DNA of 19,214 nucleotides from Candidatus Thorarchaeota archaeon (GCA_011364985.1 RDOC01000013.1:1-19214); one strand, 5' to 3'; shown: positions 3,166 through 7,826, counted from the first letter of the stretch. Numbers and translations are program-made. Notes: generated by a model from the sequence alone, not told the origin.

Positions 3166-4194
3166 ATGTCCAAATTTGACCTTATCGAACAGACTTTCCT
3201 AGGTAATCTTGATGAGCTGATTCCAATCTCTTTATGGAAACATTATCCAGAGATTGATCGCACTCCTGAGGGGTTGGCCGCTGAAGAAATCAAGTTTCAC
3301 AAAGAATTCGATCACGATTTGCTGAAGATCTCATTTCATGGACGATACCCTGTTGTCGATTGGGGATGTGAAGTAGTCTATGACGGAGCCATTTCCGGCT
3401 CAACAACATGCACGAGCTTTGCAATCACTCAATCCAGTGACTGGGAAACTCTTGAGCCTCTTGACGTCAATGATGGTGAGTTCGGAAGGCAAATTCGAGC
3501 AGTTGAATTGATACAGGAGTATGCTGACGGAAGAGTCCCTACACTTGCTACTGTGTTTGATTCTCCGATGGTGGCTGATAAGCTGTCTAAGAGGTCGCTT
3601 ACTGATCACTTGGATGAATCGCCTGAGGTCATGGAGAATGCTCTGGACATAATAACAGATGTTATGGTCGACTTCGGCAGAGCCACACTCGAGGCTGGGG
3701 CAGATGGGATCTTCCTTGCATCACAGCATTCAACTCGTGCCTCAATTAGTGATGAACATTACGAGCAATTTGTCTATCCCTTTGACAAGAAACTAATTTC
3801 CAAGCTGAGAAGCAAGGCAAAATTCATTGTGATGCATTTACATGCAAGAGAGGAAGGAGAGGAGATCCGATTTGATAGAATTGCTAAGACTCCCGGTATT
3901 GATGCAATAAACTGGGAAGATCAGAGTGCAAACTTGAGTCTTCTTGATGGGAAGAAACGATTTGGTAAGGGTGTTCTTGGCGGCATTGATCACAAGGGTG
4001 TGTTTCGCACAGGTTCCGCTGATGAGGCTGTGGAACAAGTCCTATCAGCCGTACAGGAGGCAAAGATGAGGCGTTTAGTTGTCGCCCCTGGCTGTGTAAT
4101 CACTATTGACACACCTCCAGAGAATATCCGAATAGTAGTGGATTCAATACGAGGCATTAATCCATGGGCTAAGGAATGGGAGGGTTTCAGTTGA
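3166..4194 (+). CDS. Uroporphyrinogen decarboxylase (URO-D)/MtaA-superfamily protein, probably not true HemE
   Basis: LWKHY, EAGADGIF, MHLH, AINW, LGGID and VAPGC pattern of the URO-D fold. The HemE RQAGRY motif is absent. Confidence 0.8.
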   Translation: MSKFDLIEQTFLGNLDELIPISLWKHYPEIDRTPEGLAAEEIKFHKEFDHDLLKISFHGRYPVVDWGCEVVYDGAISGSTTCTSFAITQSSDWETLEPLDVNDGEFGRQIRAVELIQEYADGRVPTLATVFDSPMVADKLSKRSLTDHLDESPEVMENALDIITDVMVDFGRATLEAGADGIFLASQHSTRASISDEHYEQFVYPFDKKLISKLRSKAKFIVMHLHAREEGEEIRFDRIAKTPGIDAINWEDQSANLSLLDGKKRFGKGVLGGIDHKGVFRTGSADEAVEQVLSAVQEAKMRRLVVAPGCVITIDTPPENIRIVVDSIRGINPWAKEWEGFS

Positions 4195-5906
4195 CAAAGA
4201 ACCGTGAAGTGGCACAAGCTCTGGAGGAAATATCCCTCCTTCTGCAGATTGAGGGAAAGGACAAGTTCAAGTCTCTTTCTTATGCCAGAGCCGCAAGGTC
4301 TATCACTGGATTGGGAGAGGACATCGAGAACATTCGAGATAGGGGCGAACTCACGAACGTTCCCGGGATTGGCAAGGCCATTGCAGATAAGATAGAGTCT
4401 TTTCTTGACACAGGAGAGATCAAGCTTCTAGTCGAGTTGAGGGAACGTGTTCCAGTTAAGGTGTGGGAGCTAGAGGCCATTCCCGATGTTGGGCCAAAGA
4501 CGATCAGTCTGCTTTACAGAGAACTGGGAGTGACGGACTTGGTGTCTCTTGAAGAGGCCCTGGATGCAGGTAAGCTTGAAGGTCTCAAAGGGATGGGGAA
4601 GAAGACAATAAGTAAGATAGCAGATGGCATAAAGATTGCAAGAGCTGGGGCTTCTCGTACTCTACTAGCTGAGGCAATGCCCATTGCTAACAGACTAGTT
4701 GAACGCCTGAGCAGAATCTCTGATGTGAATCAGGCTGTTGTGGCAGGATCTCTTCGTCGGCGAAGAGAAACCATCGGCGACATCGATATTCTAGTGGATG
4801 CATCCAAGGCCTCCAAGATAATGGACGCCTTTGTTGGTATGGAAGATATTGCGGATGTGTTGGTCAAAGGTCCAACGAAGTCATCCGTACGGACAAAAGA
4901 TGGACTGCGAATTGACCTGCGTGTGCTTCCGACAGAGAGCTACGGCGCAGGGCTCCAATACTTCACGGGGAACATCGATCACAATGTTAAGCTTCGAGCT
5001 ATTGCTAAGACGAAGGGCCTACTTCTGAACGAGTATGGCCTGTTTCGGAATGATGAGCAAGTTGCAGGGCAGGGCGAAGAAGGAATCTACGATGCACTTG
5101 GTCTGGATTACATTCCACCTGAACTTAGAGAAGATATGGGTGAGATTGAAGCTGCGCAAGAGGGGAAGCTTCCCAAGCTCATCAAGTTGGAAGACATTCG
5201 TGGTGACCTGCATACTCATACCGACCAATCAGATGGCAAAAACACGATTGATGAAATGCTAGATGCAGCTGTTGAAAAGGACTACGAATACTACTGCGTT
5301 TCTGACCACACACAGAGTCTAACAATTGCCAATGGAATGGATGAGGCACATGTACTGAAGCGCATTGAGGAGATAGACGAGCTCAATGCATCTGGAAGAT
5401 GGAAAATGAAGATTCTCAAAGGAGCAGAGGTCGATATCCTGGCCCATGGAGAACTCGACCTTGATGACTCCGTCTTGGATCAACTGGACATTATCACTCT
5501 TTCAATTCATAGCAGAATGAAGGACACCAAACAGGTAATGACTGAGAGGGTATGCCATGCATTGGAAAGTAAGTATGCTCATATTCTTGGACATCCCACC
5601 GGACGTCTTTTACTAAAGCGTCCTGAGTTTGAGATTGACATGGAAAAGGTGTTTGAAACCGCAAGGCACAACAATGTTGTGATGGAACTCAATGCTCATC
5701 CTCAACGGCTCGATTTGAATGTGGGGAATCTTCGGGCAGCAAAAAGATGGGGACTTAGGATTGCCATAAACACTGATGCACATAGAACTGGCGAACTTGA
5801 CTACATGCAATATGGTATATTTCAGGCGCGGCGCGGGTGGGTCGAAAAATACGACGTCATCAACACGCTTCCTCCAAAGGAACTTATGAAATCACTTAGA
5901 AAATAA
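4191..5906 (+). CDS. polX: DNA polymerase X family with C-terminal PHP (3'-5' exonuclease) domain
   Basis: HhH motif VPGIG, GSLRRRRETIGDIDIL, IDLR, YFTG, and PHP motifs DLHTHT..SDG, SDH, GAEVDI, HPTGR, NTDAH. The likely start is TTG 4191 (GGAGG upstream, overlapping the previous TGA); the track starts at 4176. Confidence 0.95.
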   Translation: MTKNREVAQALEEISLLLQIEGKDKFKSLSYARAARSITGLGEDIENIRDRGELTNVPGIGKAIADKIESFLDTGEIKLLVELRERVPVKVWELEAIPDVGPKTISLLYRELGVTDLVSLEEALDAGKLEGLKGMGKKTISKIADGIKIARAGASRTLLAEAMPIANRLVERLSRISDVNQAVVAGSLRRRRETIGDIDILVDASKASKIMDAFVGMEDIADVLVKGPTKSSVRTKDGLRIDLRVLPTESYGAGLQYFTGNIDHNVKLRAIAKTKGLLLNEYGLFRNDEQVAGQGEEGIYDALGLDYIPPELREDMGEIEAAQEGKLPKLIKLEDIRGDLHTHTDQSDGKNTIDEMLDAAVEKDYEYYCVSDHTQSLTIANGMDEAHVLKRIEEIDELNASGRWKMKILKGAEVDILAHGELDLDDSVLDQLDIITLSIHSRMKDTKQVMTERVCHALESKYAHILGHPTGRLLLKRPEFEIDMEKVFETARHNNVVMELNAHPQRLDLNVGNLRAAKRWGLRIAINTDAHRTGELDYMQYGIFQARRGWVEKYDVINTLPPKELMKSLRK

Positions 5907-5927
5907 ACTATGCATGCCTTTTCGAAT

Positions 5928-5982
5928 AGTCACATATTGTGACTTCAACGTGTGACCCTACATTGTGGCTTCGCTATATATA
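5928..5982 (+). promoter_or_regulatory. Operator array plus TATA box for the small-ORF cassette
   Basis: Palindrome AGTCACA-TAT-TGTGACT (5928-5944). TGTGRC occurs at 5938, 5951 and 5964 (13-bp spacing). TATATATA at 5975-5982. Confidence 0.6.
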
Positions 5983-6014
5983 CTAATTCTGAGCAGTATC
6001 TTTTGTGAACTATT

Positions 6015-6116
6015 ATGGCTCCAGCAATAAATTCCTTCGTTTTATCCACGAAGAAGAACACCACCAAGGTCGCTTCGACCGATGCCCTTTACCAAGCATA
6101 CCTGTACCGGAGGTGA
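6015..6116 (+). CDS. Small peptide, 33 aa (MAPAINSFVLSTKKNTTKVASTDALYQAYLYRR)
   Basis: ATG lies about 33 nt after the TATA box. Its C-terminus resembles that of the next peptide, and its last codons form the SD of the next ORF. Confidence 0.6.
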   Translation: MAPAINSFVLSTKKNTTKVASTDALYQAYLYRR

Positions 6117-6122
6117 AGAATC

Positions 6123-6218
6123 ATGGCACTGGCTAAGAACGACAAGACTCGCAAGATTGAGGCTCACCGAGTCAAGATTTCCACCCAGGCAATTACTCGT
6201 GCCTTTTTCGCGAGGTAG
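6123..6218 (+). CDS. Small peptide, 31 aa (MALAKNDKTRKIEAHRVKISTQAITRAFFAR)
   Basis: Strong SD GGAGGTGA at 6109-6116, 6 nt before the ATG. Shares the ST-x-A-h-x-x-A-aromatic-x-x-R motif with ORF 6015. Confidence 0.65.
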   Translation: MALAKNDKTRKIEAHRVKISTQAITRAFFAR

Positions 6219-6223
6219 TTCCA

Positions 6224-6367
6224 ATGAATCAGCATTCTGAAGAACTGCCAAAACCTCCATCGACAAGGTCGAAGACTAAGGAGAACCAACCTAGTGCTGG
6301 TAGCACCATGACGCTAGGCGAAATGCTTGCGTTGGAAGCAATAAAGGCATCTCTTTCTTTTCTCTGA
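6224..6367 (+). CDS. Small peptide, 47 aa (MNQHSEELPKPPSTRSKTKENQPSAGSTMTLGEMLALEAIKASLSFL)
   Basis: SD GAGGT at 6212-6216 before the ATG. Disordered N-terminus and a hydrophobic/amphipathic C-terminal helix. Confidence 0.55.
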   Translation: MNQHSEELPKPPSTRSKTKENQPSAGSTMTLGEMLALEAIKASLSFL

Positions 6368-6426
6368 ATTATCTCTGCGACAGTGAAATCACTAAGAAGT
6401 AAAAGTAATGGTGCCGAGAATGGGAT

Positions 6427-6456
6427 TTGTTCCAATTATGCGAAGTGCATAACCGC
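6427..6456 (-). other. 30-nt BHB tRNA intron at non-canonical T-loop position 58/59
   Basis: Central helix GTTC/GAAC, bulges GA|G and AA|A, and a 9-bp intron stem CGGTTATGC/GCATAATTG. Confidence 0.88.
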
Positions 6457-6486
6457 TCGAACCCATGAACTCCTACAAGAGTGGAT

Positions 6487-6519
6487 TTCTTCTCGGAGTC
6501 AAGCCAATGGCTTTGCGAT
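6487..6519 (-). other. 33-nt tRNA intron at canonical position 37/38
   Basis: Insertion between G37 and A38. Intron stems TCG/CGA and AAGCC/GGCTT. The BHB central helix is imperfect (CTCA/GAAG). Confidence 0.85.
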
Positions 6520-6720
6520 CTTGAGTCCACCGCCTTTGACCGGGCTTGGCTATCTCGGCTTTCTGGCCTAAAGATTCAGACAGTAGCTATTTAGCAGTTT
6601 TGGCCTTTTTCCTTATCGCATGAAACCTACTCCTTTCACCAAGGAATCTATGTGCTAGAACAAATCCGACAGGCTTATCGGTAGGAATCGCTCTCAGTAA
6701 TCCTTTGAGGTGGCCATTGA

Positions 6721-7517: not shown

Positions 7518-7826
7518 CTACTCTTCGTTGGGAAGCTCCTCAAGATGTGGCCTAATCAGATTGTAGAAGTCTGAGATAATCCTGCTCTTCGGGTCCTCTG
7601 TTTCTAGGATGAAGAGGCGTATCTGTTGACCCACCTTGATTTCTTTGACAAGACCCATATCAACCAAAGGCTGCATGACACGATGAATTGTTGAGTGTGC
7701 CAGACCGGTTTCCTTGGCAATTCTGCTCAGATTGAAGAATTCCTTCGGTCTATCCAGAAAATGCTGAACCACCCTGGTCTGAGCACGAGATGCAAACACC
7801 TTTTCCAGCAACTTCTTCACTTCCAT
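7518..7826 (-). CDS. Winged helix-turn-helix transcriptional regulator
   Basis: FNLSRIAKETGLAHSTIHRVMQPLVDMGLV HTH followed by a wing. Confidence 0.85.
   Translation of the reverse strand: MEVKKLLEKVFASRAQTRVVQHFLDRPKEFFNLSRIAKETGLAHSTIHRVMQPLVDMGLVKEIKVGQQIRLFILETEDPKSRIISDFYNLIRPHLEELPNEE

Follow-up and report, generated by a model that had tools for sequence, protein, structure and literature searches.

A palindrome-controlled operon for two paralogous microproteins, one copy of a multi-copy cassette in a Thorarchaeota family

The gap that follows polX in this contig of Candidatus Thorarchaeota is occupied by a genuine operon under the control of a switch, which encodes two very small, related proteins and a third small frame. 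The operon is one copy of a multi-copy cassette that is specific to one Thorarchaeota family. The Asgard archaea, to which Thorarchaeota belong, are the nearest relatives known for eukaryotes, and very few members of the group have been cultured; to our knowledge, almost nothing is known about their small proteins and gene control.

The window, by which we mean the whole stretch of 19,214 nt that was analysed, is an archaeal contig (G000:C4) whose end carries a 16S rRNA gene; its neighbouring genes around the operon include polX, tRNA-Leu and a hydrolase. Three ORFs on the plus strand occupy the gap between polX (4176-5906; Pfam matches to pol beta thumb, HHH and PHP) and tRNA-Leu (about 6409-6559), the latter visible in the sequence of the minus strand and without a call from ARAGORN or Rfam. 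ORF1 (6015-6116) encodes a basic microprotein of 33 aa belonging to a long subtype, with the C-terminus STDALYQAYLYRR and a family profile score of 54.9 bits, and ORF2 (6123-6218) encodes a basic microprotein of 31 aa belonging to a short subtype, with the C-terminus ISTQAITRAFFAR and a score of 41.4 bits. ORF3 (6224-6367), identified with a separate C-terminal profile, is a fast-evolving frame of 47 aa that has lost its canonical stop and continues for 8 additional codons. The original prediction, made from the DNA of the window, had described three tandem peptides of these lengths, separated by 6 and 5 nt, with a TATA box before the first and Shine-Dalgarno (SD) sequences built into the ends of the preceding frames. 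All of these elements were verified: the TATA box TATATATAC lies at 5975-5983 on the plus strand, 32 nt upstream of the ORF1 ATG; CGG AGG TGA (6108-6116), which closes ORF1 with two Arg codons and a stop, doubles as the SD of ORF2; and GCG AGG TAG, at the end of ORF2, forms the SD of ORF3 in the same way. This overlap of SD and stop is found in nearly all cassette copies. Gene callers missed ORF1, ORF2 and ORF3, the exact peptides of the window are all absent from the public protein collection, and their relatives in that collection are named 'hypothetical protein' at most. We regard the anatomy of the operon as very nearly certain.

The region upstream of ORF1 is conserved more strongly than the ORFs themselves. 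On the plus strand it contains a perfect palindromic operator, AGTCACA-TAT-TGTGACT (5928-5944), followed by the half-sites GTGACCC (5952-5958) and GTGGCT (5965-5970), the TATA box, and TTGTGAA at the predicted transcription start (6003-6009). Across 51 distinct cassette promoters, the positions with at least 90% conservation formed the series TAGTCACA, a gap of three nucleotides, TGTGACT, GTGACCC, GTGGCT, TATATACT, TGTGAA and ATG, and thus cover the operator, both half-sites and the start-site element. As read from the sequence, the GTGAC-like half-sites are 13 bp apart and likewise 13 bp from the right arm of the palindrome. No SD was found upstream of ORF1; given the usual TATA-to-start spacing of archaea, a TATA box 32 nt before the ATG would leave a leader of about 10 nt.

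The pattern GTCACA-N2-4-TGTGAC-N6-9-GTGAC had 95 matches in 44 of 61 family genomes, and its reversed control had none. A search with an extended operator pattern against one genome each for about 185,000 species returned 109 stretches, and the 80 matches listed among them carried Thorarchaeota, Promethearchaeota, 'uncultured archaeon' or, once, Hermodarchaeota labels. A virus origin was rejected for this pattern, as its four viral-contig matches were unrelated GC-rich chance sequence. A structured mRNA, 'lock' or riboswitch was also discarded (fold z = -1.23; no match in Rfam). Many contigs break off inside a cassette, as expected of a repeat.

A DNA search with positions 5880-6600 revealed two further copies of 5926-6146, a segment that spans the promoter, ORF1 and the first part of ORF2, elsewhere in the genome: the copy at C15:203907 has 85% identity and that at C20:42069, on the minus strand, 79%. 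A fourth, more divergent cassette was located at C18:51600-51940. Alignment of the three own-genome copies showed a near-invariant upstream module of 90 nt, then homologues of ORF1 and ORF2. Further loci, several per genome, were present in all 24 same-family genomes covered by the DNA search, and similarity is greater among the copies of one genome than among syntenic orthologues. The 28 ORF1 and ORF2 sequences of alignment A2 gave the family consensus MALAxN..KKN....STxA[LI]xYAYxxRR. Small ORFs with the STxA[LI] motif first noticed in the window recur throughout this lineage: the ORF1/ORF2 profile matched 24 of the 26 genomes of the window's Thorarchaeota family, with up to 14 matches per genome, and none of 124 genomes across 26 other families of the phylum. 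The approximately 150 profile matches listed were all open frames, free of internal stops.

Among 1.84 billion representative proteins, 45 small-protein clusters matched, nearly all with lengths of 29-38 aa, and no domain fusion was found in these 45. In the few longer cluster members examined, the extra length came from a start placed further upstream or from reading on beyond the motif, and no additional Pfam-type domain was evident. The peptides had no match in Pfam or NCBIfam, a best match of E = 0.12 in the PDB, no match at E <= 1 in Rfam and no usable match in the ESM Atlas; a search of literature full text found no description of Thorarchaeota or Asgard microproteins of this kind. The proposal that ORF1 and ORF2 are paralogous, regulated microproteins of an undescribed family is upheld, as is the statement that no known family could be recognised. 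We found no matching family or system, and the peptides may later prove to be a variant of some known kind.

The variation within the C-terminal motif is concentrated at third codon positions, showing that ORF1 and ORF2 are under coding selection. In a sample of 14 distinct motif copies ending in ..RR and a stop, the mean entropy was 0.61, 0.48 and 1.25 at codon positions 1, 2 and 3, respectively. The invariant Thr and Ala of the motif are encoded by several synonymous codons, and the five differences between the ORF1 motifs of the C4 and C15 copies are all synonymous. This codon-position test is decisive: ORF1 and ORF2 are protein-coding. In the dN/dS comparison suggested with the original prediction, the whole-ORF pN/pS values (0.3-0.7 in most pairs, above 2 in three very close pairs) did not settle the matter for N-terminal halves this short and fast-evolving. 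The whole-ORF values take this form because the N-terminal halves diverge fast, and the pattern implies that these variable halves are weakly constrained.

Modelling with AlphaFold2 and the family alignment yielded a single helix over residues 5-32 of ORF1, with the highest confidence over the conserved segment (mean pLDDT 86, residues 21-30), in agreement with the earlier claim of a helical C-terminus. The conserved T, A, L, A and Y have i, i+3/i+4 spacing, which in the predicted helix would suit packing against a partner. The peptides can be described as helical, basic and aromatic-rich, with a mean net charge of +4.6 and a mean GRAVY of -0.55; they are nearly free of Trp and Cys, hydrophilic throughout with no transmembrane helix, and have neither a signal sequence nor a double-glycine leader. 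Besides the C-terminus, the N-terminal MALAxN and a central KKN are conserved, and between 3 and 5 residues separate the A[YF] core from the stop, depending on the ORF.

Of 69 family ORFs, 49 have AGG as their final sense codon and 16 have AGA; TGA, TAA or TAG comes next, yielding GGAGGTGA or AGGAGATAG. The same terminal pattern occurs in most ORFs that have no ATG within 18 nt downstream, and several precede a TTG or GTG start. This pattern therefore justifies the earlier caution that the terminal Arg may partly reflect the SD constraint. Two of the roles first suggested for the peptides find no support in the data. A proteasome-type tag of the HbYX kind (hydrophobic-Tyr-any) requires a penultimate Tyr, and the family C-termini end in YRR, FRR, FAR or VVR, with Arg, Ala or Val in the penultimate position. 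A RiPP-like precursor is disfavoured by the first downstream genes of the cassettes, none of which is a maturase (radical SAM, YcaO or LanM-type), although one may be encoded elsewhere in the genome.

The shared promoter module precedes genes of several kinds. In the own-genome C15 copy, ORF1 and ORF2 are followed directly by an MFS_1/MFS_3 exporter, and in relatives the two peptides are followed by ORF3, an MFS_3 exporter, a second MFS_1 type, an S41 peptidase or an unknown multi-pass membrane protein. At C11:89128 the operator stands, without peptides, before a 412-aa bactofilin-like gene, with a small HTH_45 winged-helix gene (C11:88737-89093) just upstream. The regulon therefore includes MFS exporters, an S41 peptidase, membrane proteins and, through the operator alone, the bactofilin-like gene. 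The MFS_3 start lies 5-17 nt past the ORF2 stop, exactly in the place of ORF3. In the named set of 66 well-covered loci, 29 have the ORF3 hairpin described below (23 of the 29 behind two peptides) and 10 have a pump or peptidase; the hairpin accompanies a large payload in none of these 10. A large downstream gene is absent from most cassettes, including the window copy, where only ORF3 and the convergent tRNA lie directly downstream. Classification of the first large downstream ORF in about 120 loci revealed no ABC transporter. The best MFS_3 orthologues in the family are placed directly behind a cassette in 15 of 23 cases, the remainder being not checkable, and no MFS_3 orthologue at E <= 1e-40 was found in genera g3, g6, g9 and g25, which are nonetheless rich in peptide copies. 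Since many genera have the peptides without this orthologue, the pump cannot be a universal target; MFS_3 genes lie behind cassettes but the peptides occur without the pump, and the pump therefore depends on the cassette, not the reverse.

The order polX, cassette, tRNA-Leu, winged-helix gene is kept in at least 14 other genomes of several genera, where the C-terminal part of polX was found directly upstream of a cassette. The locus is thus an ancestral synteny. The alternative first considered, an islet acquired by integration at the tRNA, was rejected in view of this conservation across genera and of the lack of an integrase in the window; no att repeat had been seen in the first reading of the sequence either. 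A single copy of the winged-helix gene (7518-7826, minus strand; 101 aa; HTH_IclR and TrmB-like Pfam matches) occurs in 24 of 24 family genomes, at 71-89% identity, and in most of these it adjoins the tRNA-Leu and cassette locus. The two family genomes without a peptide match have the gene as well. It has no operator in its own upstream region, for which reason autoregulation was dismissed, and shows no relationship to the HTH_45 gene next to the operator at C11. The 101-aa gene is a candidate regulator on the grounds of its synteny, and with the HTH_45 gene there are two winged-helix candidates for this role, both put forward by their position.

ORF3 differs from the two preceding frames. The original prediction had read its end as a weaker version of the ORF1/ORF2 motif and ORF3 itself as a third paralogue, and neither view is tenable: ORF3s form a separate family that is alike only in the last eight residues, EVLALEAT-stop; this end coincides with a covarying RNA hairpin of terminator type, and the remainder evolves fast without a constant charge. 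A profile of the ORF3 end ranked the window ORF3 third among 65,834 six-frame genome segments, after the ORF3s of C18 and C20. At the DNA level, the conserved end is a perfect hairpin, GUGCUCGCGUUG-GAAG-CAACGUGAGCAC, in which the 3' arm holds the stop and a U-rich tract follows. In alignment A3, which comprises 25 copies, both sides changed in 6 of 12 pairs, with 19 compensatory cells, and none of 500 shuffles reached the covariation score of the hairpin. The changed pairs included GC/AU/GU at 5-28, CG/UA/UG at 8-25 and UA/AU/GU at 13-20. Sliding the registers of the alignment reduced pairing to 21-48%; A3 includes only rows selected to have 9 or more of 11 pairs, which biases the percentage paired but not the double changes. 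Some compensations link a codon third position with a base beyond the stop and others convert ALEAT to KWEAT while keeping the stem, which points to selection at the RNA level.

In 22 of 25 loci the frame that terminates within the hairpin stays open over 31 codons or more, with an SD and a start codon (ATG, TTG or GTG) close behind the preceding stop, which suggests that ORF3 is translated. Its body is Ser-rich, with a net charge that ranges from -7 to +5, and its pN/pS is 0.3 in very close pairs and about 1 in distant ones. The hairpin in G000, the genome of the window, is restricted to the three ORF3-bearing cassettes. Other genes in these genomes have unrelated stem-loops over or after the stop, a comparison that leads us to read the ORF3 structure as a terminator or 3'-end hairpin within a translated spacer ORF. 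The conserved 'motif' of ORF3 would consequently be a terminator-type RNA hairpin constraint and not a peptide motif. The window copy itself (6323-6350, plus strand) aligns in A3 with the 12-bp, GAAG-loop hairpin of the family, and its stem-loop appears in the minimum-free-energy fold. Its 3' arm, CAAUAAAGGCAU, has two central mismatches, by which Thr becomes Ile and the stop is lost, and the frame runs on for 8 codons through the T-rich tract (6351-6366), a putative termination signal. In this copy, then, the ORF3 end is degenerate and the hairpin weakened.

Two other origins of ORF3 were considered and rejected. The tail of the MFS pump, EVLLEVKG-stop, and that of ORF3, EVLALEAT-stop, look alike by eye, and a tail motif was unique to the pump among 1930 ORFs, a result that is circular since the motif was written after the tail had been seen. 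An ORF3-only profile ranked the pump tail 83 of 1921, and ORF3 was not retained as a free-standing copy of this acidic tail. Nor is it a constant acidic partner of the basic ORF1 and ORF2 peptides, given that, once the last nine residues are set aside, its net charge spans -7 to +5 and averages close to 0.

We tentatively propose that ORF1 and ORF2 are trans-acting helical microproteins that dock on a partner within a lineage-specific programme, a possibility to which we give slightly less than even weight. A putative DNA-binding factor would act on the palindrome and on GTGAC half-sites phased at 13 bp, which wrap around the TATA box. The resulting short-leader mRNA would encode ORF1 and ORF2 as paralogous basic microproteins of about 30 aa, and because the SD lies inside the preceding stop region, the two would be translationally coupled and expected in a fixed ratio. 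Both would be functional products, acting in trans and probably as a pair, with contact made through the conserved Ala/Leu/Tyr face of the C-terminal helix. The partner may come from the same programme, that is, from among the MFS exporters, the S41 peptidase, the bactofilin-like protein and the membrane proteins. ORF3 would be a translated, spacer-like and fast-evolving frame, its stop held in the terminator-type hairpin. Docking on a common target, as originally suggested, is plausible, and we infer the trans action, the pairing and the identities of partner and regulator from the arrangements described above.

Tandem paralogues of about 30 aa that are cationic and lack leaders would also be consistent with exported bacteriocin-like or signalling peptides, perhaps trimmed, for which the MFS, S41 peptidase and membrane proteins would provide export, processing or immunity. 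The multiple copies, with fast-diverging N-terminal halves and greatest similarity within a genome, and a promoter module common to transporters, a peptidase and unknown membrane proteins, agree with such a role. However, the peptides are hydrophilic (GRAVY -0.55) with almost no Trp or Cys, and have no signal or double-glycine leader; their first downstream genes include neither an ABC exporter nor a maturase, and several genera have them without an MFS_3 orthologue. Furthermore, we know of no MFS pump that transports peptides of 30 residues. We therefore consider export unlikely.

The coupling of the pair to a downstream gene raises the question of cis action, whereby the nascent C-termini of leader or ribosome-arrest peptides would detect a small molecule within the exit tunnel, thereby controlling reinitiation at the next cistron. 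Leader-peptide control of this sort operates on MFS and erm resistance genes of bacteria. In every case the pair is positioned 5' of a variable payload and tightly coupled to it, MFS_3 orthologues are nearly always preceded by it, and conservation is concentrated C-terminally, up to the stop; against this, the spacing of 3 to 5 residues between the A[YF] core and the stop is variable, and conservation extends to the N-terminal MALAxN and central KKN. Most cassettes, including that of the window, have no large payload to control, and no significant alternative mRNA structure was found (z = -1.23). We consider cis action quite unlikely here.

A third explanation is that the basic peptides bind nucleic acid, either the hairpin of their own transcript, in the manner of lambda N and boxB, or the operator, and so exert feedback on termination or transcription; we judge this improbable to a high degree. 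It would account for basic, helical, aromatic-rich peptides encoded on the same transcript as a conserved hairpin with a loop almost constant at GAAG, yet cassettes with a pump payload keep ORF1 and ORF2 without the hairpin (0 of 10), and the conservation of the loop can be explained by the Glu codon that it encodes. A more specific version, which we credit with only a slim chance, would have ORF1 and ORF2 act in trans as Arg/Tyr helical peptides that recognise the GAAG-loop hairpin and set termination, read-through or mRNA life. Finally, the view that the frames are no genes at all (frames open by chance in a region of promoter or non-coding RNA, or shadows of a real 74-aa antisense ORF at 6042-6266), for which one could cite the failure of gene callers on all three, the lack of the exact sequences in the protein collection and a promoter more conserved than the ORFs, is largely refuted and barely credible in the face of codon-position periodicity, open frames in all of the approximately 150 listed profile matches, an antisense frame that stays open throughout in just 8% of 48 cassettes, and the lack of an Rfam match or significant fold.

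The trans-acting, partner-docking reading is the one we carry forward, and several results matter beyond it. The analysis defines a lineage-wide, multi-copy microprotein family that annotation pipelines have mostly missed, and delimits an operator with a regulon of exporters, a peptidase of the C-terminal-processing type and a bactofilin-like cytoskeletal gene. The coding-embedded hairpin would offer an example of an apparent 'peptide motif' that is an RNA constraint. The cassette also provides reagents that can be synthesised: two peptides of 30 residues, one RNA of 28 nt and one operator of 60 bp. Hairpin recognition, if true, would amount to an Asgard-native peptide-RNA circuit of the lambda N/boxB type, with up to a dozen copies in a genome.

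Among known systems, the leaderless multi-peptide bacteriocin operons of Firmicutes, such as aureocin A70, garvicin KS and enterocin L50, share with the Thorarchaeota cassette tandem paralogous genes of approximately 30-45 codons that are cationic, without a leader and co-transcribed. They differ in the hydrophobic or Trp-containing, membrane-active character of their products, whereas the Thorarchaeota peptides are hydrophilic (GRAVY -0.55) and their cassettes have no adjoining ABC exporter or immunity gene; no sequence similarity to these bacteriocins was found in Pfam, NCBIfam, protein clusters or the PDB. The leader and arrest peptides of bacterial MFS and resistance genes (the fexA, cmlA, tet(L), mef and ermC leaders, and SpeFL and TnaC) are similar in that a small ORF immediately precedes an MFS exporter gene and is coupled to the next cistron, with C-terminally biased conservation that runs to the stop. 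In contrast, the Thorarchaeota cassette has two paralogous ORFs, a conserved N-terminus and a variable distance from motif to stop, and a large gene to be regulated is downstream in 10 of 66 well-covered loci and absent from the window copy.

Small-protein partners of transporters, including AcrZ with AcrB, KdpF, SgrT with PtsG and MntS with MntP, offer a parallel in microproteins that are co-regulated or co-operonic with a membrane transporter, although the Thorarchaeota peptides have no transmembrane segment and occur in genera without an orthologue of the pump. The ORF3 end, in turn, can be compared with intrinsic-terminator-type and stop-embracing hairpins, from which it differs in lying inside a coding sequence, where it fixes the last eight residues of ORF3, and in being nearly constant in sequence across genera. 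It resembles them in its 12-bp stem, its U-rich tract and its position at the end of a transcription unit, and the combination of a compensatory stem with a U-rich tract that characterises the terminator type was found at the ORF3 end, with T-rich tails visible in alignment A3.

A fourth cassette of the window's own genome, comprising ORF1, ORF2 and ORF3 together with the hairpin at the ORF3 end, lies on the - strand of another contig (G000 C18:51600-52200). It has a different promoter, with GTTACAAA repeats, and an additional small ORF stands ahead of the cassette, coupled to it via its own Shine-Dalgarno sequence. Within the window's genus, ORF3 copies (G000 C20 and C18; loci L017, L067 and L069) carry H-x-C-x-x-C (HKCPIC, HRCATC) or a single Cys directly before the hairpin-encoded end; the window's ORF3 has no such Cys residues before its end. 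Numerous MAG contigs end 100-700 nt past the operator (L040, L041, L044, L052, L059, L061 and others), which identifies the cassette as an assembly-breaking repeat, and cassette copy numbers are therefore underestimates.

In the window, ORF1 and ORF2 are overlapped by a 74-aa ORF on the - strand (6042-6266) and a 52-aa ORF in another frame of the + strand (6082-6240). Codon-position variation supports the ORF1/ORF2 frame, and the 74-aa antisense ORF was rejected as a gene since its conservation was absent. ARAGORN did not call the tRNA-Leu gene beside the cassette (6409-6559, - strand), and Rfam missed it even with a cutoff of E <= 1; the acceptor and anticodon-arm sequence of the gene can be read directly in the DNA. 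The missed calls fit the two introns noted for this gene in a separate observation of the original prediction.

The chromosome of another genome, G056 (L037, L038, L130), bears two single-peptide cassettes with 1.7 kb between them; downstream of one lies a 490-aa S41 peptidase of the C-terminal processing type, and an MFS_1 transporter follows the other. Locus L029 of the window's own genome (G000 C11:88737-90458) comprises, in this order, a 118-aa HTH_45 winged-helix gene, the same operator as in the cassettes and a 412-aa bactofilin-like gene. The winged-helix and bactofilin-like genes are also neighbours in genome G050 (L032), and this adjacency is absent in three other genomes.

The 3' ends of transporter genes at L043, L045, L048, L060 and L063 form unrelated stem-loops. 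These span or directly follow the stop codon, upstream of T-rich tracts, suggesting that terminators of this kind are in general use across the family.
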